DNA from: Enterococcus camelliae
GTDB taxonomy: Bacteria; Bacillota; Bacilli; Lactobacillales; Enterococcaceae
Length of the DNA stretch: 24,000 bases
Direction: 5' to 3'
NCBI RefSeq assembly: GCF_042685105.1
Contig: NZ_JBHUMO010000056.1
Coordinates: 65,383 to 89,382 of the forward strand
In this document: one piece after another, positions 3,350 to 21,729 of the stretch
How positions within the stretch are numbered: position 1 is the first letter of the stretch
Layout of the letters: the number at the start of each line of letters is the position of its first letter
Position numbers and translations under genes: made by a program
Notes under the pieces: generated by a model
The model's input: only the letters and a program-made list of their open reading frames with translations
Database searches by the model: none
Told to the model about the DNA's origin: nothing

Positions 3350-3355
3350 TTTTTA

Positions 3356-3384
3356 GAGCAGTCAGAAGACTGTTCTTTTTTTTT
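3356..3384 (+). terminator. rho-independent terminator of rlmN
   Basis: Stem GAGCAGTC/GACTGTTC (8 bp, one G-U), loop AGAA, then T9 (3376-3384). Confidence 0.75.
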
Positions 3385-3515: not shown

Positions 3516-3545
3516 AGGACACAAATTTTACACATTTTTTACAAT
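3516..3545 (+). promoter_or_regulatory. candidate distal oppA promoter P1: AGGACA (3516-3521), 18-nt spacer, TACAAT (3540-3545)
   Basis: Hexamers read from the sequence, with an A-rich UP-like tract upstream. The -35 match is weak. Confidence 0.25.
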
Positions 3546-3580
3546 TATGAAGAAAAAATGAAATTTTTATAAAATACTGC

Positions 3581-3609
3581 TTGCTTTTTTAATAATTACT
3601 AATTAAAAT
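3581..3609 (+). promoter_or_regulatory. candidate proximal oppA promoter P2: TTGCTT (3581-3586), 17-nt spacer, TAAAAT (3604-3609)
   Basis: Hexamers and spacing read from the sequence, about 60 nt upstream of the oppA start. Confidence 0.35.
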
Positions 3610-3631
3610 TTAATTTAATTCAGACAATACT

Positions 3632-3646
3632 CATTTTCTGAAAAAA
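3632..3646. promoter_or_regulatory. candidate CodY box CATTTTCTGAAAAAA (12/15 match to AATTTTCWGAAAATT)
   Basis: Read directly from the sequence. It sits between candidate promoter P2 and the oppA SD. opp operons are classic CodY targets in low-GC Gram-positives. Confidence 0.3.
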
Positions 3647-3668
3647 AAAGATAAAGGAGAGTTTATGC

Positions 3669-5336
3669 ATGAAAAAGAGATGGGCCTATAGCTTGGTTAC
3701 GATTTTTGGACTTGCACTAGCAGGTTGTTCTACTACAGGTGGATCTTCCTCATCGACAGCGACATCCAATAGTTCAGGAGGAGAAGCAAAAGATCAGACC
3801 TTTAAAGTCGTTGTGCAACAAGAAATGCCAAGTGCTGATCTATCATTGGCAACCGATACGATTAGTTTCAGTGCATTAAATAATGTGTACGAAGGAATTT
3901 ATCGCTTAAATAAAGACAACAGTCCAGAACCTGCGGGCGCTTCTGAGAAAGCCAAAGTGAGTGATGATGGTCTAACCTATACAATTAAATTACGTAAAGA
4001 TGCCAAATGGTCAAATGGGGACCCCGTAACGGCCGCAGATTATGTTTACGGATGGCAACGAACCGTTAATCCGAAAACAGCATCAGAATATGCCTATCTT
4101 TTTTCACCAGTCAAAAATGCGGATGATATCACAGCTGGTAAGACAGCGGTCGATCAATTAGGAATTAAGGCCGTTAATGATCATGAATTAGAAATTACTT
4201 TATCCAAAGCTACACCGTACTTTGACTATTTATTAGCATTCCCTTCATTTTTCCCACAAAATCAAAAAGTCGTTGAAGAGAATGGTTCAAAATATGCTCA
4301 ATCTAGTGCTACAGCAGTTTACAATGGACCATTTACCTTAACAGACTTTGATGGACCTGGTACTGATACTGAGTGGAGTTACACGAAAAATGATCAATAT
4401 TGGGACAAAGAAAATGTGAAATTAGCTAAAGTCGAAGTGAGTGTTGTGAAAGAATCATCAACTTCTTTGAACTTATTCCAAGATGGAGAAGCGGATGATG
4501 TCATCCTTTCTGGTGAATTGGCACAACAAATGGCCAATGACAAATCATTTGTCTCTCAACCAGAAGCTTCTACGACCTATCTAGAAATGAATCAACGGAA
4601 GGCAGACTCACCATTTAAAAATGAAAACTTAAGAAAAGCAATTTCTTACGCTATTGATCGTGACTCGTTGGTAAATTCTATTTTAGGTGATGGTTCAATT
4701 GCTTCTACTGGTTTAGTACCATCTGGGATGACATTTAGTCCTAAAAACAAAGAAGATTTTACAAAATCGGCTGGGACTGAACTTTCTTACAGCAAGAAGG
4801 AAGCGAAAGAATATTGGGAAAAAGCGAAAAAAGAATTGGGTATTACTTCTTTGAAGTTTGATATTTTATCTTCTGATACCGATTCATCTAAAAAAATTAC
4901 CGAATATCTTCAAAGTGCCATTCAAGAATCTTTGGAAGGTGTGACTGTTACGCTAAGTCCAGTACCATTCTCTGTTCGTTTGGACCGTTCAAATGCCGGT
5001 GATTTCGATGTTGTCATGGGTGGCTGGGGAGCTGACTATGCTGATGCAAGTAGTTTCTTAGATTTATTTGTGACAGGCAATTCTTATAACCGTGGGCAAT
5101 GGAGCAATTCAGAGTATGATGCAACAATCAAAGCAGCTAGTACAACCGATGTTAGTGATCCAGAAAAACGCTGGGATGATTTGGTTAAAGCTGAAAAAGT
5201 TTTAATGGATACACACGGCGTTGTTCCATTGTATCAAAAAGCCGAAGCACACTTACGTAATACGAAAGCGAAGGGCGTGGTTGCCCATGGTGCGGGGGCA
5301 CAATACGACTATAAATGGACGTACATCGCTAAATAA
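3669..5336 (+). CDS. oppA: oligopeptide ABC transporter substrate-binding lipoprotein (SBP family 5), paralogue 1
   Basis: Lipobox LALAGC at the N-terminus and family-5 SBP blocks (WSNGDPVTAADYVYGWQR, VMGGWGADYADASSF). SD AAAGGAGAG lies upstream of ATG 3669. Confidence 0.9.
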   Translation: MKKRWAYSLVTIFGLALAGCSTTGGSSSSTATSNSSGGEAKDQTFKVVVQQEMPSADLSLATDTISFSALNNVYEGIYRLNKDNSPEPAGASEKAKVSDDGLTYTIKLRKDAKWSNGDPVTAADYVYGWQRTVNPKTASEYAYLFSPVKNADDITAGKTAVDQLGIKAVNDHELEITLSKATPYFDYLLAFPSFFPQNQKVVEENGSKYAQSSATAVYNGPFTLTDFDGPGTDTEWSYTKNDQYWDKENVKLAKVEVSVVKESSTSLNLFQDGEADDVILSGELAQQMANDKSFVSQPEASTTYLEMNQRKADSPFKNENLRKAISYAIDRDSLVNSILGDGSIASTGLVPSGMTFSPKNKEDFTKSAGTELSYSKKEAKEYWEKAKKELGITSLKFDILSSDTDSSKKITEYLQSAIQESLEGVTVTLSPVPFSVRLDRSNAGDFDVVMGGWGADYADASSFLDLFVTGNSYNRGQWSNSEYDATIKAASTTDVSDPEKRWDDLVKAEKVLMDTHGVVPLYQKAEAHLRNTKAKGVVAHGAGAQYDYKWTYIAK

Positions 5337-5353: not shown

Positions 5354-5386
5354 CAATCTCATTCAGTTGGTTACTGAATGAGATTG
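5354..5386 (+). terminator. perfect 14-bp stem-loop between the two oppA paralogues (partial terminator/attenuator or mRNA-stabilising hairpin)
   Basis: CAATCTCATTCAGT (5354-5367), loop TGGTT, ACTGAATGAGATTG (5373-5386). The 3' tail AGTTTAATT is only weakly U-rich. Confidence 0.5.
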
Positions 5387-5427
5387 AGTTTAATTAGGAT
5401 ACTATGCCAAAAATAAGGGGGAACACG

Positions 5428-7077
5428 ATGAAAAAGAAACAGATTATTGGTTGGTTAGCTTTATGTGGAATTGTTTTAGCGGGTTGTACAACTGGAGGAT
5501 CTACCAAAGAAAGTGGAACTTCAAGTTCAACCACAAAACAAGAATTTAATGTTGTTGTTCAACAAGAAATGCCAACAGCAGATTTATCAGTGGCGACAGA
5601 TACGATTAGTTTTACGGCATTAAATAATGTGTATGAAGGATTATATCGTTTAGACAGTGAAAATAAACCACAGGCAGCTGGTGCTGCAGAATTGGCCACT
5701 GTTAGTGATGATGGACTAACCTACACACTAAAATTACGAGAAGATGCCAAATGGTCAAATGGCGACCCTGTAACGGCGGCAGATTATGTTTATGGTTGGC
5801 AACGTACAGTCAATCCAAAAACAGCTTCAGAATATGCTTATTTATATGAATCTGTTGAAAATGCAACAGAAATCACTAACGGAGAAAAAACAGTTGATCA
5901 ATTGGGAATCAAAGAAAAAGGTGATTATGAGTTAGAAATTAAACTAACAAAACCAACACCGTATTTCCAATACCTATTGGCTTTCCCTTCATTTTTCCCA
6001 CAAAATCAAAAAGAAGTGGAAAAAGAGGGCGATAATTATGCCAAGACAAGTGCGAATGCTATCTACAATGGGCCATTTACACTTGAAGGATTTGATGGCC
6101 CAGGTACGGATACTGAATGGAGTTACAAGAAAAACAAAGAATATTGGGATAAAAAGAATGTAAAACTGGAAACAATCAATGTCAGTGTTGTAAAAGAATC
6201 CTCAACTTCTCTCAATCTTTTCAAAGATGGTCAAGCGGATGATGTGATTCTTTCAGGTGAACTAGCACAACAAATGGCTAATGATAAGGCTTTTGTCTCA
6301 CAAGAAGATGGTCGTACTTCTTATTTAGAATACAACCAACGAAAAGCAGATTCTCCATTTAGAAATACCAAATTACGTCAAGCCATTTCCTATTCCATTG
6401 ACCGTAATGTGTTAGTGAAAAATGTCTTAGGTGATGGTTCAATTGCTTCAACAGGTTTGATTCCAAAGAACTTGACATTTGGACCTGATGGTACTGAATT
6501 TACCAAAGCATCTGGAAAACAGGTAAGTTATGATGCTGACAAGGCGAAAAAACTTTGGGCAGAGGCTAAAAGTGAACTAGGCATCAGCTCATTGACGTTT
6601 GATATCATCGCTTCAGATGATGATTCAACGAAAAAAGTAGTTGAGTACATTCAAAATGCCATTCAAGAAAACTTAGAGGGGACTAAGGTAACCGTGACGC
6701 CTGTACCATTTTCAGTTCGTCTAGATCGTTCAACATCAGGTGATTTTGAAGTTGTCATGGGTGGTTGGGGAGCTGACTATGCTGATGCAAGTAGCTTTAC
6801 AGATCTCTTTGTCACTGGCAATTCTTACAACCGCGGACAATGGAGCAATGCCGAATATGATAAGGTAAATAAAGCGGCAGGAACAACCAATGTAGCAAAT
6901 CCTGAAAAACGTTGGGCCGACTTACTTGATGCAGAAAAAATAATTATGGCGGATCAAGGTGTAACGCCGGTCTTCCAAAAAGCTGAAGCACATTTACGAG
7001 CAACCAAAGTAAAAGATGTTGTTGTACACAGTGCAGGAGCTCAATACGATTACAAATGGGCTTATATTAAAGAATAA
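5428..7077 (+). CDS. oppA: oligopeptide ABC transporter substrate-binding lipoprotein, paralogue 2
   Basis: The ORF opens at 5404, but SD AAGGGGG (5415-5421) lies 6 nt before ATG 5428 (MKKKQIIGW..). Lipobox VLAGC. Long blocks are identical to paralogue 1. Confidence 0.9.
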   Translation: MKKKQIIGWLALCGIVLAGCTTGGSTKESGTSSSTTKQEFNVVVQQEMPTADLSVATDTISFTALNNVYEGLYRLDSENKPQAAGAAELATVSDDGLTYTLKLREDAKWSNGDPVTAADYVYGWQRTVNPKTASEYAYLYESVENATEITNGEKTVDQLGIKEKGDYELEIKLTKPTPYFQYLLAFPSFFPQNQKEVEKEGDNYAKTSANAIYNGPFTLEGFDGPGTDTEWSYKKNKEYWDKKNVKLETINVSVVKESSTSLNLFKDGQADDVILSGELAQQMANDKAFVSQEDGRTSYLEYNQRKADSPFRNTKLRQAISYSIDRNVLVKNVLGDGSIASTGLIPKNLTFGPDGTEFTKASGKQVSYDADKAKKLWAEAKSELGISSLTFDIIASDDDSTKKVVEYIQNAIQENLEGTKVTVTPVPFSVRLDRSTSGDFEVVMGGWGADYADASSFTDLFVTGNSYNRGQWSNAEYDKVNKAAGTTNVANPEKRWADLLDAEKIIMADQGVTPVFQKAEAHLRATKVKDVVVHSAGAQYDYKWAYIKE

Positions 7078-7162: not shown

Positions 7163-7498
7163 TTACAGAAAAGCCAAGCCTAAAAATACCAAACTCAAAA
7201 GGAATAGTATCAAGGCAGGTTCCAACCAAAAGCGATAACTTGTTCGACCGATTTCTGAAAGCGTGAGATAGTCTTCTTTTGTTTTCCTAAAAGCTTTTTT
7301 CCATGAATATTGAAAGAAGTCAAGTGATCCAGAGGCGCAAACCCATAAAAAGCTTCCAATGATTAAAAAGAATAGAGTGAAGGAAAATAATAGGTCAGAC
7401 ACACGGGACCAAGCAAAATCTGAGAAGATCATTGGCCATAACAAGCTAATAATCAACCCCGCAATACTGATGATGAGGGTACTTTTACGAAGGTGCAT
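7163..7498 (-). CDS. small integral membrane protein (111 aa, about 3-4 TM helices), function unknown; possibly DUF3899-like
   Basis: Hydrophobic segments in the translation, SD AAGGAG (reverse complement of 7506-7511) upstream of the ATG, and its own promoter candidate. The family assignment is from memory only. Confidence 0.6.
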   Translation of the reverse strand: MHLRKSTLIISIAGLIISLLWPMIFSDFAWSRVSDLLFSFTLFFLIIGSFLWVCASGSLDFFQYSWKKAFRKTKEDYLTLSEIGRTSYRFWLEPALILFLLSLVFLGLAFL

Positions 7499-7538
7499 AC
7501 CAAACTCCTTTCTAAACTAATACATAAATAATAAAATA

Positions 7539-7587: not shown

Positions 7588-8529
7588 GTGAATAGTTTTG
7601 TTAAATATATCTTAAAAAGAATTTTTTTTATGGTGGTTACGTTGTGGATTATTGCGACGATTACCTTTTTCTTAATGAAATTGCTACCTGGTACACCCTA
7701 TACGAATGCAGAAAAATTGAGTGCACAACAAATTGCCCTGTTAAATAAACAAATGGGCTTGGATAAGCCAATGATTGTGCAATATGGTCTATATTTGAAT
7801 AATTTATTGCACTTTGATTTGGGGATTTCCTTCCAATTTAAAAACCAACCAGTAGCCAATCTGCTGAGTGCTCGTATTGGACCATCCTTACAATTAGGGA
7901 TTCAAGCAATCATTGTTGGGACACTAGGAGGCATTATTCTAGGAGCTATTTCAGCGATGAAACAAAATACTTGGATCGATACAACGGCAACCTTAGTGGC
8001 GATTCTTGGACGCTCCATTCCAAACTTTGTGTTTGCTGTCTTATTACAATATGTGTTTGCCATGAAATTGCACATTTTACCAATTGCAAAATGGGAAACC
8101 TTTGCTTATACAATCTTACCAACGATTGCCTTGGCAATGTCCCCATTAGCAGATTCTGCTCGGTTTATTCGGACGGAAATGGTGGAAGTGTTGCATAGTG
8201 ATTATGTGGAACTGGCACGTGCAAAAGGCTTAAGCCGTTGGGGAATTGTTTTTCATCATGGCTTACGTAACAGTTTGATTCCATTATTAACACTGTTAGG
8301 ACCATTAGCAGTTGGACTGATGACTGGTTCGCTGGTTGTTGAAAATATTTTTGCTATTCCGGGTATCGGAGAGCAATTTGTCAAATCAATCATGACAAAT
8401 GATTACCCAACGATTATGGCTGTGACGATGCTTTATTCAGCAATGTTGGTTGTGGTTATTCTAATTGTCGACATTTTATATGGAATTGTTGATCCAAGAA
8501 TTCGTGTATCAGAAGGGAGTCGTAGCTAA
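7588..8529 (+). CDS. oppB: oligopeptide ABC transporter permease OppB
   Basis: GTG start 7 nt after AGGAGG (7575-7580). Typical OppB/DppB N-terminus (FVKYILKRI..) and six TM segments. Confidence 0.9.
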   Translation: MNSFVKYILKRIFFMVVTLWIIATITFFLMKLLPGTPYTNAEKLSAQQIALLNKQMGLDKPMIVQYGLYLNNLLHFDLGISFQFKNQPVANLLSARIGPSLQLGIQAIIVGTLGGIILGAISAMKQNTWIDTTATLVAILGRSIPNFVFAVLLQYVFAMKLHILPIAKWETFAYTILPTIALAMSPLADSARFIRTEMVEVLHSDYVELARAKGLSRWGIVFHHGLRNSLIPLLTLLGPLAVGLMTGSLVVENIFAIPGIGEQFVKSIMTNDYPTIMAVTMLYSAMLVVVILIVDILYGIVDPRIRVSEGSRS

Positions 8530-9575
8530 TGGCTAATTCAGCACAAATAAATGAAAAAGAACTAGCGGCGATTCCGTTAACATCGTTTGAACCTTTAGAA
8601 AAGAGTACGGTTGAAAAGCGTGAAGAAATTGCTATGCCTTCCTTAACGTTTATGCAAGATTCTTGGCGTCGTCTAAAGAAAAACAAAGCAGCCGTTTTTT
8701 CAATTGTCTTGTTGGCAATCATTATTGCAATCTCGTTAATTACCATTTTTGTGTCTCCACATAATCCTACAACACAAAATGTGAAATATACCAATCTGCC
8801 ACCCAAAATTCCAGGTATCAATATTACTGGCCTGAATGGACATGCCGAAGTGGGAGGGAAAGTGGTTGACAAATATGCGCAAGCCAATGTCCCTGCTGGC
8901 ACCTATTTTTATCTTGGAACGGATAGTCTGGGCCGTGATTTATTAAGTCGCTTATTTATGGGGACACGAGTATCATTATTAATTGCCTTTATCGCCGCGT
9001 TGCTCGACATTGTTTTCGGAGTGACTTATGGCTTGATTTCTGGCTTACTAGGTGGGCGTGTGGACAATATCATGCAACGGTTTTTAGAAGTGATTTCTGG
9101 TATTCCTAATCTAGTTGTGATGATTTTAATGTTGGTTGTTTTTGAACCAGGTATTCCATCAATTGTTGCAGCTATGGCAATTACGAACTGGATACCAATG
9201 GCTCGGATTGTCAGGGCGCAGACGATGAAGCTCAAAGACCAAGAGTTTGTATTGGCTGCGACGACACTAGGGGAAACACGTTCGAAAATAGCATTTAAGC
9301 ATATCTTACCGAATATTTCGAGTGTCATTATTATCCAAATGATGTTTAGTATTCCGTCGGCGATTTTCTTTGAAGCTTTCTTGAGTTTCATTGGTTTAGG
9401 GCTTCGTCCACCGGTTGCTTCCTTGGGTACATTGTTAAGTGATGGTTACAAGACCTTTCTATTTTTGCCCTACCAATTATGGGTCCCAGCAATAACGCTC
9501 TCGGTCATTATGATTGGCTTTAACTTACTAGCTGATGGGCTACGTGATGCGTTTGATCCGAAGATGAAAGAGTGA
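8529..9575 (+). CDS. oppC: oligopeptide ABC transporter permease OppC
   Basis: TAATG stop/start overlap with oppB. OppC N-terminal block (QDSWRRLKKNKAAVFS) and BPD-transport permease core. Confidence 0.9.
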   Translation: MANSAQINEKELAAIPLTSFEPLEKSTVEKREEIAMPSLTFMQDSWRRLKKNKAAVFSIVLLAIIIAISLITIFVSPHNPTTQNVKYTNLPPKIPGINITGLNGHAEVGGKVVDKYAQANVPAGTYFYLGTDSLGRDLLSRLFMGTRVSLLIAFIAALLDIVFGVTYGLISGLLGGRVDNIMQRFLEVISGIPNLVVMILMLVVFEPGIPSIVAAMAITNWIPMARIVRAQTMKLKDQEFVLAATTLGETRSKIAFKHILPNISSVIIIQMMFSIPSAIFFEAFLSFIGLGLRPPVASLGTLLSDGYKTFLFLPYQLWVPAITLSVIMIGFNLLADGLRDAFDPKMKE

Positions 9576-9579
9576 TTGA

Positions 9580-10620
9580 ATGAATAAGATAATTGAAGTG
9601 AAAAATTTAGAGATTTCTTTCGATACATTTGCCGGAAAAGTTCAAGCCATTCGAAATGTCAGCTTTGATTTGTATCAAGGCGAAACGTTAGCCATTGTTG
9701 GTGAATCGGGAAGTGGGAAATCAGTAACCACACGAAGCATTATGGGGTTGCTAGCTAGCAATGCCAATGTTGAGAATGGGGAGATTTTATTTAACGGTTC
9801 GGATATCGTAAAGAAAAGTGAAAAGGAATTACAAAAAATTCGAGGAAAAGATATTGCGATGATTTTCCAAGATCCAATGACTTCACTGGATCCAACGATG
9901 CCAATTGGCAGACAGGTAGCAGAATCTTTGATCAAGCATACCAAAATTTCCAAAAAAGAAGCACTAAAGCAAGCATTAGAATTGTTAAATTTGGTTGGCA
10001 TTCCTAACGCCGAAAAGCGGCTAAAAAATTATCCGCACCAATTTTCTGGTGGACAACGACAACGGATTGTGATTGCGATTGCGTTGATTTGTTACCCACA
10101 AGTGCTCATTGCTGACGAACCTACGACGGCCTTAGATGTGACCATCCAAGCCCAAATTATCGAATTACTGAAAGATATTCAACAAAAAATGAATTCATCC
10201 ATCATTTTCATTACCCATGATTTAGGAGTTGTTGCCAATGTCGCCGATCGTGTTGCAGTGATGTATGGTGGGAAAATTATTGAGATTGGAACGGCTAGAG
10301 AAATTTTCTATAATCCACAACATCCGTATACTTGGGGGTTGCTTGGTTCAATGCCTACGTTGGAAAGCACAGGAAAACGGTTATATGCGATACCAGGTTC
10401 CCCTCCTGATTTATTAAAGCCACCAACTGGGGATGCGTTTTATCCACGGAATGAATACGCAATGAAAATTGATGCTGAACAAGAACCACCATTTTTTGAT
10501 GTTTCACCTACCCATAAGGCAGCAACTTGGTTATTAGCACCTCAAGCGCCAAAAGTGACACCACCAGAAGAAATCCAAATTCGCTGGAAAAAATTTCAAG
10601 AGAATGCTTTTGGAGAGTAA
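9580..10620 (+). CDS. oppD: oligopeptide ABC transporter ATP-binding protein OppD
   Basis: Walker A GESGSGKS, signature FSGGQRQR, Walker B LIADEPTTALD, and the oligopeptide-type C-terminal extension. Confidence 0.9.
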   Translation: MNKIIEVKNLEISFDTFAGKVQAIRNVSFDLYQGETLAIVGESGSGKSVTTRSIMGLLASNANVENGEILFNGSDIVKKSEKELQKIRGKDIAMIFQDPMTSLDPTMPIGRQVAESLIKHTKISKKEALKQALELLNLVGIPNAEKRLKNYPHQFSGGQRQRIVIAIALICYPQVLIADEPTTALDVTIQAQIIELLKDIQQKMNSSIIFITHDLGVVANVADRVAVMYGGKIIEIGTAREIFYNPQHPYTWGLLGSMPTLESTGKRLYAIPGSPPDLLKPPTGDAFYPRNEYAMKIDAEQEPPFFDVSPTHKAATWLLAPQAPKVTPPEEIQIRWKKFQENAFGE

Positions 10621-10634
10621 GGAGGGAAAGATAA

Positions 10635-11573
10635 GTGAGTAAAGTCCTATTAGATGTAAAGAATTTAAAACAATATTTTAATGTGGGTCGTAAAGATGAA
10701 GTTAAAGCTGTTGATGATATGACCTTTCACATTTTTGAAGGCGAAACATTTGGTTTAGTAGGGGAATCCGGAAGTGGCAAATCGACGACTGGTCGTTCTA
10801 TCATCCGACTGAATACACCAACTGATGGCACGATTACCTTCGATGGTCAAGATGTGATGAAATTGAAAAGTAAACAAGAATTGAAGGATTTCCGTCGGGA
10901 GGTTCAAATGATTTTCCAGGATCCGTATGCATCGCTTAATCCACGAATGAAAGTGCGTGATATCATCGCAGAAGGAATTGACATTAATCATTTGGCCAAA
11001 AACGAGAAGGAGCGAAATGCACGGGTCGATGAGCTACTGAAAACAGTTGGCTTAAATCCATCACATGGGACACGTTATCCGCATGAATTTTCAGGTGGAC
11101 AACGGCAACGGATTGGGATTGCTCGAGCTTTGGCAGTGGATCCCAAATTCATCATTTGTGATGAACCGATTTCCGCTTTGGACGTATCCATTCAAGCACA
11201 GGTTGTGAATTTATTGCAAGATCTACAAGAAAAACATAATTTAACCTATTTTTTCATTGCACATGATTTGTCGATGGTAAAACACATCAGCGATCGAATT
11301 GGGGTAATGCATCTGGGAAAATTACTTGAAGTAGGGACAAGCGATGAAATTTACCATTATGGTGTGCATCCGTATACCGAAAGTTTGTTGTCTGCGATTC
11401 CTTTGCCCGATCCTGAAAGTGAACGAACAAGAAAACGGATTAAATATGTCGAAGTTCCACAAGCGAATACCGCAAGAAAAATGCAAGAAATTGCACCAGG
11501 TCATTTTATTTATGCGACAGAAGAAGAAGTGCCAATGTATCAAGAAAAATTACGAAAAAAGAAGGAAGTTTAA
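10635..11573 (+). CDS. oppF: oligopeptide ABC transporter ATP-binding protein OppF
   Basis: GTG start after AAGGAGGG. Walker A GESGSGKST, signature FSGGQRQR, Walker B IICDEPISALD. Confidence 0.9.
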   Translation: MSKVLLDVKNLKQYFNVGRKDEVKAVDDMTFHIFEGETFGLVGESGSGKSTTGRSIIRLNTPTDGTITFDGQDVMKLKSKQELKDFRREVQMIFQDPYASLNPRMKVRDIIAEGIDINHLAKNEKERNARVDELLKTVGLNPSHGTRYPHEFSGGQRQRIGIARALAVDPKFIICDEPISALDVSIQAQVVNLLQDLQEKHNLTYFFIAHDLSMVKHISDRIGVMHLGKLLEVGTSDEIYHYGVHPYTESLLSAIPLPDPESERTRKRIKYVEVPQANTARKMQEIAPGHFIYATEEEVPMYQEKLRKKKEV

Positions 11574-11597
11574 GTAATAGGGTAAGGGGGTTGATTC

Positions 11598-12605
11598 ATG
11601 AAAGTGTTAAAAGGTTATCGTTTTCGGATTTACCCGGACGAAGAACAATTGACATTTTTTAAGCAAACCTTTGGCTGCGTAAGATTTACGTACAATCAAT
11701 TGTTGATGGCAAGAAAAGGAACAGCAAACTCAGAAGAAAGCATGAAATTAACCCCCGCTGCATTAAAAAAAGACTATCCCTTTTTGAAAAAAACGGATAG
11801 TCTGGCTTTGGCCAATGCACAACGTAATTTGGAGAGAGCCTACGCGAATTTTTTTCAAGGAAGAGCAGGCTACCCAAAACTAAAAAGCAAGAAAAATAGT
11901 TGGCAATCTTACACAACGAATAATCAAAAACATACCATTTATTTTATCGATGGGAAATTGAAACTGCCAAAATTGAAAAGTCTCGTCCAAGTTCACCAAC
12001 ACCGAGAGATAAAAGGGATGATTCGTTCCGCTACGATTTCGGCAAAAAATAATGAAGAATTTTATGTTTCATTGTTGTGTTTAGAAGAGGTTTCATTCTT
12101 GCCAAAAACAAAGAAAGTAATCGGCATTTCTTATTGTCCGCAACGATTGATTCAATTATCGCAATCTTTCGATAATTTACCAAATATTGAAGAACAATTG
12201 CTAGGAGACAAACTGGAAAAAGCCCAAAAGAAATTGCAACTGCGAGCCAAAATCGCTAAAAAACATAAAGTAAGATTAAGAGATGCCAAGAATTATCAAA
12301 AGCAAAAGCAACGAGTGCAAAAGTTAATTCAGGAAAAAGCCTGTAAAAAAAATGATTTTATTGATCAGTTGACGTTTCTCTTAGTCAAAGAGTTTGACTA
12401 TATATTTGTTGAAAAACAACCACGGATAACCGATAGTGAAGAAGACAATCCATTTACTTCAACGGATTGGTATAGTTTTACTCAAAAATTGACGTATAAA
12501 ACGCAATGGTATGGCAAAGAGTATCTCGCGGTTGAGAGTCCGGATGACAGCATTCGTTCTAGTCGAATCATTGAGGAATTAGGAAAACAACAACTTGATT
12601 TGTAA
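11598..12605 (+). CDS. tldR: TnpB-like (IS605 OrfB-derived) protein lacking nuclease motifs: candidate TnpB-like nuclease-dead repressor (TldR), oppF-associated
   Basis: Canonical TnpB N-terminus MKVLKGYRFRIYPDEEQLTFFKQTFGCVRFTYNQLL. The RuvC-I position reads VIGISYCPQ instead of GIDLG. The ORF ends after ..WYGKEYLAVESPDD.., so the CxxC zinc finger and RuvC-III are missing. SD AAGGGGG lies 7 nt upstream of the start, and the start is 24 nt after the oppF stop on the same strand. No tnpA is nearby. Confidence 0.8.
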   Translation: MKVLKGYRFRIYPDEEQLTFFKQTFGCVRFTYNQLLMARKGTANSEESMKLTPAALKKDYPFLKKTDSLALANAQRNLERAYANFFQGRAGYPKLKSKKNSWQSYTTNNQKHTIYFIDGKLKLPKLKSLVQVHQHREIKGMIRSATISAKNNEEFYVSLLCLEEVSFLPKTKKVIGISYCPQRLIQLSQSFDNLPNIEEQLLGDKLEKAQKKLQLRAKIAKKHKVRLRDAKNYQKQKQRVQKLIQEKACKKNDFIDQLTFLLVKEFDYIFVEKQPRITDSEEDNPFTSTDWYSFTQKLTYKTQWYGKEYLAVESPDDSIRSSRIIEELGKQQLDL

Positions 12606-12710
12606 AAAAATCGATCAGAACTGGAAGGGGCTCCAGGGATCGCCTAGGGTATAGAAAAAAGGAAACTTTTTGTTTCTAGGAAAAATGCTCACTAATTATG
12701 AAAAACCAAA
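12500..12710 (+). ncRNA. candidate TldR guide RNA (omega-RNA-like scaffold overlapping the 3' end of the ORF plus a downstream guide); boundaries approximate
   Basis: By analogy with TnpB omega-RNAs, which span the 3' end of tnpB and the downstream flank. The non-coding tail folds into hairpin A (CGATC-agaa-CTGGA-aggggc-TCCAG-g-GATCG, 12612-12642) and stem B (CCTAG 12643-12647 with CTAGG 12676-12680, enclosing GAAAC-ttttt-GTTTC). An unstructured A/T-rich stretch at 12681-12710 follows, just before the convergent terminator. Confidence 0.35.
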
Positions 12711-12740
12711 GAAGAGAGAGGACAGCTGTCCTCTCTCTTC
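12701..12740 (-). terminator. rho-independent terminator of the convergent Nudix/NrtR-like operon; may also stop plus-strand opp/tldR transcripts
   Basis: Perfect 30-nt palindrome GAAGAGAGAGGACAG/CTGTCCTCTCTCTTC (12711-12740). On the minus strand it is followed by TTTGGTTTTT. There is no T-run on the plus strand. Confidence 0.75.
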
Positions 12741-14014: not shown

Positions 14015-14128
14015 ACAAACCACAAAATACAAAATACTCTCAATTCTAGTATAGAGGTTTGGCTATTTGATGTACAGCTACTATTCTATTAGGTGCTTGC
14101 TTACAATCTATTTACACTAATAAATAAC

Positions 14129-14154
14129 AAAAAAGAGAGTCCCAATTACTCTCT
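14129..14154 (-). terminator. rho-independent terminator about 140 nt downstream of the SMR gene
   Basis: On the minus strand: AGAGAGT-aattggg-ACTCTCT followed by TTTTTT. Confidence 0.6.
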
Positions 14155-14296
14155 CTTCCAAGATTTATTCAAAAACAACGCTATTGAAACAAAACTAGAT
14201 TCCATTGTTGTTGGGTTAAAAACAAAGGCGGTCATGATGAATGGTAAGTTCGAGATATTAAAGGCGGTCAAACAATTTGGAAATAATGGGTACAGA

Positions 14297-14617
14297 CTAG
14301 TGACCACTAGTCAATTTAATACCAATAATACCAATAATGAGTAAGATAATGAAAAACCAAGTAAGCAAGTTTAGTTTGTCGCCAAAAAATACGACACCAA
14401 TAATGATTGAACCGACTGCTCCAACGCCAGTCCAAATTGGGTAAGCAAGACTAAGAGGCAAATTTTTAAGCGATAATGAAAGTAAGGCAAAGCTAATAGC
14501 CATTCCAATAAAAGTTAGTATAGTCCACCCCAAATGTGAAAATCCATTACTAAGTTTCATGGTACTAGACCAAACCACTTCAAAAATTCCAGCTAGAAAT
14601 AAATAAATCCAAGTCAT
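14297..14617 (-). CDS. sugE: SMR-family exporter, SugE/Gdx (guanidinium exporter) subtype
   Basis: 106 aa with 4 TM helices and the conserved membrane Glu in AGIFEVVW. Colinear similarity to E. coli SugE (..KLSNGF.., ..LPLSLAYPIWTGVGAVG.., ..GIIGIKL). Confidence 0.88.
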   Translation of the reverse strand: MTWIYLFLAGIFEVVWSSTMKLSNGFSHLGWTILTFIGMAISFALLSLSLKNLPLSLAYPIWTGVGAVGSIIIGVVFFGDKLNLLTWFFIILLIIGIIGIKLTSGH

Positions 14618-14631
14618 TTTTTATTCTCCTT

Positions 14632-14715
14632 AAAAAATTAAAAAAACAGTTTATCCCACATCTTCATTGACCTAACGATGTAGAGATACTGTTTTAAAAT
14701 TGTTCCCGGTGGAAC
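14632..14715 (-). promoter_or_regulatory. leader with small hairpin (GTTCC-ACCG-GGAAC) plus a long terminator hairpin and U-run ending about 10 nt before the sugE SD; either the GNAT terminator or an attenuator/riboswitch-like element
   Basis: On the minus strand: CAGTATCTCTACATC-(14 nt)-GATGTGGGATAAACTG followed by TTTTTTTAATTTTTT, then AAGGAG. No promoter hexamers lie between the terminator and the SD. Confidence 0.5.
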
Positions 14716-14748
14716 ATAGTATTTTATTCAATTTAAATAGTTACAGGT

Positions 14749-15261
14749 TTAAATATCTTTAACCATTATTAAATCAGTTTGTGGATCATCACCCATGTTA
14801 AATGTATGACTACCAACAAATTTAAAACCTAGATGCTGATAAAAGGCTTTAGCATTTTGATTAAATTCCCAAACACCTAACCAAATACGCTGTTTTCCTA
14901 ATTGTGTAGCTTTTGCTATTGCAATATCATATAGAATCTTACCCAGTCCTTGTTTTTGAAATGCTTTACAAATGTAGATTCGTTCAATTTCCAGAGCATT
15001 TTCAAAGCCATCTTCTGATTGTACATCATTCACATTTAACTTTAGATAGCCCATAATTTCATCATTATCATTGAGTACAAAATAAAAAAAAGAATTTTCA
15101 TTTTCCAGTTCTTCAGTTAGTTTTTCTAATTTGTAACTAGATTCTAAATAGTCTTCCATATTTTGTTTTGTATTTTGAGCTGCAAAAGTATCATAAAAAG
15201 TTTCAACACTGACTTTTTGTAATGCATCGAGGTCAGTCAAATCTAGTTCTTTAATATGCAT
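14749..15261 (-). CDS. GNAT-family N-acetyltransferase
   Basis: 170 aa with the acetyl-CoA binding motif QKQGLGKILYD and a typical GNAT fold pattern (..WLGVWEFNQNAKAFYQHLGF). Confidence 0.85.
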   Translation of the reverse strand: MHIKELDLTDLDALQKVSVETFYDTFAAQNTKQNMEDYLESSYKLEKLTEELENENSFFYFVLNDNDEIMGYLKLNVNDVQSEDGFENALEIERIYICKAFQKQGLGKILYDIAIAKATQLGKQRIWLGVWEFNQNAKAFYQHLGFKFVGSHTFNMGDDPQTDLIMVKDI

Positions 15262-15677
15262 AGTAGCGTTCTCCGTTTTTAAGTTTAAAAAAGCAAAAGT
15301 AGGTAACTCATTATTTTTTTAAAAACTAATGAGATGAAACCAACTATTATTGTAAACAATGTTTCTGGTAAAATAATTATTTTTATATTAGCATAATTCA
15401 AAAAAAAGTCAAATCAAATATAAAAGACTTGAATTTACTTATTTCTCGTTCGATAGTGAGCCTATCTTACGTGTATCGAAGCAGAAACTATCTCAAAAAT
15501 GATAGTCTAAACTCAAGACAAGGATTGAAATCATTATCCAAAATATAGATTCCTGAAAAAAACCATCCACATTCATAGTCTCATCCTTGGGAGCGGATAT
15601 CTTTCAAGCAATATCGTGGCGTATCGGAAAAAAAGGTAGAAGAATAGGAAACTAAGAAAACTAAGAAAACCGTGTAA

Positions 15678-17858
<2,181 letters not shown>

Positions 17859-21123: not shown

Positions 21124-21552
21124 ATGAAACGACCAGATTTAGGCTATTATTTATCGATGATTAATTCGATTGTGACCGATACGGAACAAACCGGAACCCA
21201 ATTGAACGATGCTTTTGAAGAGGTGAAAGGTGCAATTGAACGAAAAGAGATTGCTTCGTTTGATGATGCCCGTCGCATGGAAATAGTAGAATTGTTTCAA
21301 ACGGGGACAGATAAGTATCGCCTAATGTTAGAACAAATCAGTAAATTACAGCCACCAGCCCGTATTTTAGGAAACCATAAAAAATTTGAGCACGCCTATA
21401 AAAGTTATGTGGCAGGTTGTGAAGAAATGATTCTTAGTTTAGAGGATGGTATCGATGTAGCAGCATTTTACGCAGCAGAAGAAAAACAAGATCAAGCCAC
21501 TGATGCAATCGCCGCAGCAATCCAAAAGATGACCCAAGTAATGGTAAAATAA
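21124..21552 (+). CDS. hypothetical cytoplasmic protein (142 aa, predicted all-helical)
   Basis: SD GGAAGAGGAG upstream and a clean ORF. No motif recognised. Confidence 0.6.
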   Translation: MKRPDLGYYLSMINSIVTDTEQTGTQLNDAFEEVKGAIERKEIASFDDARRMEIVELFQTGTDKYRLMLEQISKLQPPARILGNHKKFEHAYKSYVAGCEEMILSLEDGIDVAAFYAAEEKQDQATDAIAAAIQKMTQVMVK

Positions 21553-21661
21553 TCAGAAGAAACCAAGAAAAATTTAATCTAACTATTAGAAGATTTTCAA
21601 GATTGAATACGAGAGTTACGGTAAAATAATTACATAACCAACAATAACCTTTTTATTTTTC

Positions 21662-21729
21662 AGTAACTCCCTAACCAAGAGTTACTACTCCTTTTTCCGC
21701 TAGGCCTAACCAACCTAGTGGTTTTTTTT
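21662..21729 (+). terminator. two tandem hairpins with identical 9-nt loops (CCTAACCAA); the second is followed by T8
   Basis: AGTAACTC-CCTAACCAA-GAGTTACT (21662-21686) and CCGCTAGG-CCTAACCAA-CCTAGTGG (21697-21721), then TTTTTTTT (21722-21729). Confidence 0.55.

Follow-up and report, generated by a model that had tools for sequence, protein, structure and literature searches.

The opp operon and its last gene

The DNA analysed here is a stretch of 24,000 nucleotides from Enterococcus camelliae (contig NZ_JBHUMO010000056.1, positions 65,383 to 89,382), referred to below as the window, and all coordinates are given within it. It contains an opp operon for peptide uptake, at the end of which lies tldR, a gene for a nuclease-dead homologue of the RNA-guided transposon nuclease TnpB. 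The gene belongs with the TldRs (repressors related to TnpB but nuclease-dead) and is followed by a guide RNA (gRNA) with a predicted target at the promoter of oppA-1. An earlier interpretation of this DNA from its letters alone (the sequence-only reading) had proposed an RNA-guided regulator at this position; the gRNA and the oppA-1 target are additions to it. The genes of the operon and the start of tldR are as follows:

3669..5336, plus strand: oppA-1, an SBP_bac_5 lipoprotein gene and the predicted regulated gene
5404..7077, plus strand: oppA-2, a tandem paralogue encoding a second substrate-binding protein (SBP), without its own target site
7163..7498, minus strand: DUF3899 gene, running antisense to the operon (also so in E. 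faecalis V583)
7588-8529, plus strand: oppB
8529-9575, plus strand: oppC
9580-10620, plus strand: oppD
10635-11573, plus strand: oppF (ABC_tran E 2e-35; oligo_HPY slightly under the Pfam cut-off)
11584..11590, plus strand: AAGGGGG, the Shine-Dalgarno sequence of tldR, 7 nt 5' of its ATG
11598..12605, plus strand: tldR, encoding a 335-amino-acid nuclease-dead TnpB homologue with Ser178 at the RuvC-I position, Glu272 kept, and the zinc finger and RuvC-III segment missing

The stop codon of oppF and the start of tldR are separated by 24 nt, and the spacing and the separate Shine-Dalgarno sequence are as the sequence-only reading gave them. Its description of the open reading frame (ORF) as fused to the operon holds in the sense of adjacency and not in the sense of a protein fusion. 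No terminator was found in the gap from oppF to tldR, and this layout makes it likely that tldR is transcribed along with oppBCDF.

For comparison, 80 genomic loci were retrieved. A common gene order was found across the genus, consisting of rlmN, one or two copies of oppA, the antisense DUF3899 gene, oppBCDF, tldR and a convergent nrtR-like Nudix regulator. The end of oppF lies less than 150 nt 5' of tldR in 40 of 59 related loci, which answers the call of the sequence-only reading for a survey of this gene pair. Dozens of Enterococcus and Tetragenococcus species have an intact tldR frame at this chromosomal position, and in contigs of 99% identity from four metagenome samples the ORF, the guide and the gene order are all kept. 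Compared with E. italicus, the ratio of nonsynonymous to synonymous substitution rates (dN/dS) of tldR is 0.068, with dS at about 1.6 and synonymous sites near saturation. The ORF is not decaying, and its earlier description as intact rather than eroded was borne out. Within the window there is no Y1 transposase (tnpA) domain, no insertion sequence (IS) end, and no second copy of tldR detectable by blastn or tblastn, as had been read from the sequence.

Several loci in the comparison depart from this arrangement. Six loci of several Enterococcus species carry tldR and its gRNA beside rlmN/nrtR with no adjacent opp operon, and four others carry tldR-like genes (301-309 amino acids, ending in ...WYQKEL or ...WYDKEL) without a recognisable downstream gRNA. 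In E. lemanii, E. aquimarinus, E. alcedinis and E. eurekensis (five loci), a tldR gene and the same guide lie 3' of a paralogous ABC operon, whose OppD and OppF are 57% and 50% identical to those of the window and whose target motif lies on the opposite strand. In the window itself, the 67-nt gap between oppA-1 and oppA-2 contains a 14-bp hairpin at 5354-5386.

A TnpB fold with an incomplete catalytic triad

The N-terminus of the ORF (MKVLKGYRFRIYPDEEQLTFFKQTFGCVRFTYNQLL) had been recognised as that of TnpB/IS605 OrfB, and it matches the Pfam model HTH_OrfB_IS605 with an E value of 8.7e-15. The protein scores under the cut-offs of the Pfam OrfB_IS605 and Cas12f1-like TNB/zinc-ribbon models, and only the first 24 positions of the TNB model (1-24) are matched. 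With the NCBIfam models, the broad guided_TnpB subfamily is reached at 138 bits (cut-off 100), and the score for IS200_TnpB is 228 bits, far under its cut-off of 425. This is the outcome of the profile search that had been suggested with the sequence-only reading.

Alignment by phmmer to ISDra2 TnpB (8EXA/8H1J; E 9e-27) places GISYC of TldR opposite GVDVG, so that catalytic D191 corresponds to Ser178, and FVEK opposite GTEH, so that E278 corresponds to the retained Glu272. The C-terminus of TldR falls near TnpB residue 320-340, ahead of D361. The four cysteines, at positions 27, 161, 180 and 249, form no CxxC, and the tail after WYGK is 32 amino acids long and likewise without CxxC. The loss of the RuvC-I aspartate, the retention of the RuvC-II glutamate and the absence of the zinc finger and RuvC-III motif, all claimed before from the letters, were upheld by this alignment. 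The features of an active IS200/IS605 TnpB, that is, an intact DED triad, a zinc finger, and an IS with left and right ends (LE/RE) and often tnpA, are not those of the locus.

The comparison was extended by aligning every opp-linked homologue alongside 11 full-length TnpBs of more distant relationship that came from the same scan. The 11 full-length relatives carry GxDxG, xxExL and DRDxNAA, a C-terminal tail of 65-90 amino acids and one to three CxxC motifs. Among the opp-linked homologues, the motif-I aspartate is never at the aligned position, being replaced across the clade by Ser, Ala, Val, Ile, Thr and others. Their tails reach only 7-53 amino acids, and CxxC is missing with one incidental exception. 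The RuvC-II glutamate is also gone in many opp-linked homologues that retain the gRNA.

An AlphaFold2 model of TldR built on the alignment has a predicted local distance difference test (pLDDT) score of 89.4. When this model was used for a fold search of the PDB, the best matches were the ISDra2 TnpB ternary complexes 8H1J and 8EXA (E 4.6e-21; template modelling (TM) score 0.70-0.72). No deposited TldR structure was found in PDB sequence and fold searches.

In the cryo-EM structure of Efa1TldR from E. faecalis, the target-adjacent motif (TAM) is read by S74, L75, N79, Q81, N114 and Q116. The corresponding residues here, S68, L69, N73, Q75, N108 and Q110, are identical to these, and the sole difference among the TAM-reading residues is V82, which is R76 in the window protein. 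Across an alignment of 24 sequences, S68, L69, N73, N108 and Q110 do not vary, and Q75 shows conservation of at least 90%. Hundreds of proteins from Enterococcus and Tetragenococcus, about 301-367 amino acids long and labelled 'transposase' or 'TnpB family', came up in a protein search.

A conserved, pseudoknotted guide RNA downstream of tldR

The region 3' of tldR contains the following features:

12615..12692, plus strand: gRNA scaffold core, from an Rfam Ref70 match, a 40-species alignment and covariation
12693..12708, plus strand: guide TAATTATGAAAAACCA, of which the first 9-11 nt are probably the mature guide
12711..12740, both strands: 13-bp GC-rich terminator hairpin, common to the gRNA (plus) and the convergent nrtR (minus)

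The gRNA is about 95-110 nt long and encoded right after the tldR stop codon, with a guide that begins TAATTATGA. The 5' boundary of the scaffold is uncertain; the published length of 100 nt would put its start near 12593. A conserved block was found 3' of tldR in 55 of 60 related loci, starting with GAACTGGAAGG and ending in CAC followed directly by TAATTAT. Beyond about 16 conserved nt after the scaffold, each species has its own divergent terminator.

A single-sequence fold of the gRNA gave a z score of -0.7, and RNAalifold alone returned only a 4-bp long-range helix, with strong covariation. A model was therefore written by hand and assessed by pair counting over 40 distinct sequences. It consists of helices P1 (12621-24/12633-36), P2 (12643-47/12676-80) and P3 (12656-61/12666-71) and a pseudoknot in which the hairpin loop at 12628-31 pairs with 12687-90, four bases ending 2 nt before the guide. 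In this model 95.2% of cells are paired, compared with 36-59% when the partners are slid. Double-sided changes occur at 10 of the 19 pairs, and none of 500 shuffles reached any observed measure. This covariation supports the three helices and the pseudoknot.

The position at which the scaffold gives way to the guide agrees with the published E. faecalis guide (TAATTATTT, TAM TTTAA) and with the Efa1 expression construct, whose scaffold ends in GTCCAC immediately 5' of the engineered guide; the scaffold of the window aligns with that of Efa1. By analogy with Efa1TldR, the mature guide probably consists of the initial 9-11 nt of TAATTATGAAAAACCA. All 16 nt are identical to the predicted guide of EceTldR, the experimentally tested TldR of E. 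cecorum. Conservation reaches at least 90% at guide positions 12-15 (AACC). In the shared terminator region (window 12700-12740), the minus-strand T-tract of nrtR (TTTGGTTTTT) is complementary to the guide's 3' portion (GAAAAACCAAA), and this double use may explain part of the conservation of guide positions 9-16 despite their lack of a match at oppA.

The gRNA also corresponds to an existing RNA family. The Rfam entry 'Enterococcus sRNA 70' (Ref70, RF02841; sRNA, small RNA) has a full-length match at 12615-12704 with 40.6 bits and an E value of 9e-6, which is below the gathering score. The Ref70 consensus tracks the gRNA scaffold listed for Efa1TldR in the plasmid table of Wiegand et al. and ends in CUAAUUAUU, which is the published guide. 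These sequences make it probable that Ref70 is the TldR guide RNA of E. faecalis, which would then have been catalogued as an sRNA years ahead of the first description of TldRs. The word 'Ref70' was not found in the TldR papers searched.

A conserved, predicted target site in the oppA-1 promoter region

Candidate targets were sought by the criterion used by the authors who described the TldRs, a TTTAA TAM followed by a perfect 6-nt seed. The site and its surroundings are:

3581..3609, plus strand: putative oppA-1 promoter, with -35 TTGCTT at 3581-86, a 17-nt spacer with the TAM and target, and -10 TAAAAT at 3604-09
3588..3592, plus strand: TAM TTTAA
3593..3601, plus strand: predicted target TAATTACTA, with seed positions 1-6 matching, 7-8 mismatching and 9 matching

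The combined TAM and seed, TTTAATAATTA (TTTAA followed by TAATTA), has a single occurrence in the window, at plus-strand positions 3588-3598, as against 0.03 expected, and sits 71-81 nt 5' of the oppA-1 ATG. In dinucleotide shuffles of the AT-rich 292-bp spacer between rlmN and oppA, such a site was found in only 1%. The same criterion applied to 1.14 Mb of related loci yielded 56 sites, about 50 of which lie 51-92 nt 5' of OppA-type SBP genes, and each of these directly follows a TTGCTT, TTGATT or TTGCAA box. The TTG, the TAM, the seed and TAAAAT are invariant in a ten-species promoter alignment. A terminator lies after rlmN at 3355-3376, so oppA-1 needs a promoter of its own. There is no TAM and seed for oppA-2, whereas in E. 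cecorum and E. columbae both SBP genes are preceded by one.

Two other candidates were considered and rejected. One, an exact match to the sequence after the scaffold, was AATTATGAA at 3543-3551, following TTTAC; it was ruled out as the primary target on account of a one-nt offset from the guide register, the lack of a TTTAA TAM, a mismatch at guide position 1 and its lack of conservation in E. italicus. The second, a recurring minus-strand TAATTATTAAAAAAGC, is the plus-strand TTTAA-TAATTA read backwards, TAATTA being palindromic. Allowing one mismatch or a TTTAT TAM gave five matches in the window against 4.7 expected, which is uninformative.

Further motifs were observed in the same intergenic regions. 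The AATTATGAA motif equals guide positions 2-10 (12 of 16 over the whole guide, 3542-3557), lies 45 nt 5' of the canonical site and shares bases with the -10 (TACAAT) of another promoter-like site, at 3516-3545; E. sulfureus and a metagenome-assembled genome (MAG) have an inverted repeat of it at that place, and E. italicus does not. A near-miss, TTTAT followed by TATTTA, occurs at 7525-7535 on the minus strand in the divergent DUF3899/oppB intergenic region; one-mismatch sites in the window are at chance frequency. Between the -10 and the start of oppA-1, at 3619-3650, most species keep two TTCWGAAAAT motifs that look like CodY boxes (AATTTTCWGAAAATT), which suggests that oppA may also be under a protein repressor. 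The CodY consensus itself has four matches in the window against 6.6 expected, and the one at 3632-3646 (three mismatches) is at chance level.

Proposed mechanism and its alternatives

Computed at the locus itself are a nuclease-dead TnpB fold under selection, a structured gRNA, and a unique, conserved TAM and seed in the oppA-1 promoter region. Binding of the gRNA, binding of DNA without cleavage and repression of transcription are expected from the homologues, for which RIP-seq, ChIP-seq, the absence of plasmid interference and reporter repression have been reported (10.1101/2023.11.30.569447 among the sources). In E. faecalis V583, overexpression gave about 40-fold repression of oppA, which was the most repressed gene (10.64898/2026.09.22.753285), and ChIP-seq of homologues indicated that the TAM and about 6 nt of seed are enough for binding. 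Every feature of the oppF-associated TldR clade that can be checked by computation is present here, including the position right after oppF in an ABC transporter locus of five to six genes, which supports the idea of the sequence-only reading that the gene encodes an RNA-guided regulator wired to peptide uptake. We consider it very likely that this ORF is orthologous to the oppF-associated TldR already published and that, with its gRNA, it represses the oppA-1 promoter of its own operon.

In the proposed mechanism, the TldR-gRNA complex would read the TTTAA TAM through Ser68, Leu69, Asn73, Gln75, Asn108 and Gln110, and the guide would base-pair to template-strand positions 3593-3601, which fall within the spacer separating the -35 from the -10 of oppA-1; there the complex is predicted from its homologues to block RNA polymerase. 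Lacking two of its three RuvC carboxylates as well as the zinc finger, TldR could not cut the DNA. The peptide-binding protein OppA-1 would be repressed with OppBCDF still expressed, and the freed permease may serve other OppA paralogues, as the authors proposed for E. faecalis. If tldR is co-transcribed as predicted, levels of the permease would rise along with those of the repressor that acts on its cognate binding protein, which fits that idea of OppBCDF freed for other OppA paralogues.

Several points weigh against this reading, and expression, binding and repression at this locus remain predictions by analogy. The oppA-1 promoter was annotated by hand, from conservation only, and a consensus scanner omitted TTGCTT-17-TAAAAT, whose -35 matches at three of six positions. 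The guide TAATTATGA pairs with the target TAATTACTA at seven of nine positions, with a perfect seed and mismatches at positions 7 and 8, so repression may be weak; the same seven of nine are paired in E. italicus, E. sulfureus and a related MAG, and most other species reach 7-8 of 9. The conserved guide positions 12-15 (AACC) do not pair with the oppA site. RNA-seq in V583 moved the transcription start site (TSS) upstream of the target (10.64898/2026.09.22.753285), and by analogy the complex might block elongation here too, rather than initiation. Deleting tldR together with its gRNA in V583 gave no de-repression of oppA and no phenotype in standard lab culture (10.64898/2026.09.22.753285), and for EsaTldR, one of the homologues tested, there was no enrichment of its gRNA.

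The alternative that survives best keeps a functional RNA-guided binder and gives it a main target or role other than occlusion of the oppA-1 promoter, such as a full match elsewhere, a broader regulon or a weak tuning of oppA. It would account for mismatches at oppA-1 that are fixed in four species, for a 16-nt guide conserved more than the oppA site explains, for the species that keep tldR and gRNA without a nearby opp operon, for the further putative targets that the authors report in E. cecorum, and for the match of 12 of 16 at 3542-3557, which has no canonical TAM. On the other side, the TAM and seed of the oppA promoter are invariant across species and form the sole such site in the window, binding by the homologues requires no more than a TAM and about 6 nt of seed, oppA responds most strongly in V583, and the conservation of the 3' part of the guide is partly explicable by the T-tract of the convergent nrtR terminator. 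We therefore regard a different main role as improbable. Seed-only pairing, with mismatches fixed in at least four species, together with conservation of the 16-nt guide across the genus nevertheless makes a related proposal possible for the E. italicus group, namely that its TldR represses oppA-1 weakly and in a graded manner, or has a fully matched main target elsewhere and acts as the hub of a small regulon; this we hold to be unlikely, if slightly less so than the preceding alternative.

There is very little chance that the protein is an active RNA-guided nuclease in which Glu272 and other acidic residues replace the lost aspartates. Glu272 does occupy the position of catalytic E278 and is kept in the subclade, with acidic residues such as D267 close by. 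Against this, the motif-I aspartate is replaced throughout the clade, the whole RuvC-III/zinc-finger segment is missing, and many opp-linked homologues have dropped even the glutamate while retaining the gRNA. No plasmid interference was seen with the clade members tested (10.1101/2023.11.30.569447 among the sources), and a nuclease targeting its own chromosome would be lethal. A decaying IS200/IS605 copy, in which a functionless truncated tnpB pseudogene had landed after oppF, would fit the scores under the Pfam cut-offs for OrfB_IS605 and TNB, the C-terminal truncation and the database label 'transposase', but with a dN/dS of 0.068 at near-saturated synonymous sites, an intact frame at one chromosomal position in dozens of species, a downstream RNA conserved with compensatory changes, and no tnpA, second copy or IS ends in the window, it is effectively refuted and has next to no probability.

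Other features of the window

Outside the operon, a 1.7-kb segment at 14028-15755 carries genes for a small multidrug resistance (SMR) transporter (14297-14617, minus strand) and a GNAT acetyltransferase (14749-15261, minus strand). The segment is missing from two metagenome contigs that are otherwise 96-99% identical, which indicates a strain-level insertion or deletion. A second Rfam family, Enterococcus sRNA 84 (Ref84), matches above its gathering score (62.7 bits) at 21636-21729 on the plus strand, 3' of a 142-amino-acid ORF at 21124-21552.

Relation to known systems

The locus is real and was correctly read, and the system is already known, as the oppF-associated TldR of Wiegand et al. 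(10.1101/2023.11.30.569447), who described the clade, and of Xiao et al., whose 2026 preprint reports native oppA repression in E. faecalis V583 (10.64898/2026.09.22.753285). The mention in the sequence-only reading of such a clade in Enterococcus was correct (10.1101/2023.11.30.569447). The supplementary dataset of Wiegand et al. lists the E. italicus orthologue, members from E. sulfureus and Tetragenococcus, and guides of the TAATTATGA... type.

The locus represents one more Enterococcus lineage in which a transposon nuclease has been domesticated as an RNA-guided transcription factor tied to peptide uptake. Its chief value lies in correct annotation, as databases describe such proteins as 'transposase' or 'RNA-guided endonuclease TnpB' and leave the guide RNA and target unannotated. 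The first description of the clade reportedly appeared later in Nature, in 2024. Beyond the TldR papers searched, the present analysis adds the apparent identity of Ref70 with this gRNA, covariation for the pseudoknotted scaffold across 40 species, and the seed-only pairing in the subclade.

The nearest named orthologue is the TldR of E. italicus DSM 15952 (EFU74685.1), which is also 335 amino acids long, is 81% identical in amino acid sequence and has the same guide, target site and synteny. It belongs to a separate species and lineage, with 80.6% nucleotide identity over tldR and gRNA, and was catalogued by Wiegand et al. EceTldR of E. cecorum, which has been studied by RIP-seq, ChIP-seq and reporter assays, shares the predicted 16-nt guide TAATTATGAAAAACCA and the TAM and seed sites 5' of OppA genes. 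It differs in protein identity (50%), length (313 amino acids) and loss of the glutamate as well (DED state S/V/- in the supplement), and in E. cecorum both tandem oppA genes have a site and the oppF-tldR spacing is 141-680 nt.

Efa1TldR and the TldR of V583, both from E. faecalis, have the operon layout of oppA, antisense DUF3899, oppBCDF, tldR and gRNA seen here, together with the TTTAA TAM, the TAATTA seed, a scaffold architecture ending in ...CAC before the guide, and the TAM-reading residues. Efa1TldR is about 50% identical over 125 N-terminal aligned residues, and its guide is TAATTATTT as opposed to TAATTATGA, which has a local match of seven of nine. In V583 the target lies 3' of the TSS, whereas in the window it is predicted in the promoter spacer and there are two tandem oppA genes.

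More distant comparisons lie with the fliC_P-associated TldRs of Enterobacteriaceae prophages, which represent an independent domestication of TnpB into an RNA-guided promoter repressor, but belong to another clade, are prophage-borne, use a 16-nt guide and target the host fliC promoter. With ISDra2 TnpB (8EXA, 8H1J), an omega-RNA-guided nuclease, the window protein shares the fold (TM score 0.72), a pseudoknotted guide RNA encoded 3' of the gene, and a 5' TAM read by the WED and REC domains. The D191/E278/D361 triad, the zinc finger, the 16-nt guide, the IS with tnpA and LE/RE ends, and the cutting of DNA belong to ISDra2 TnpB and not to the TldR described here.

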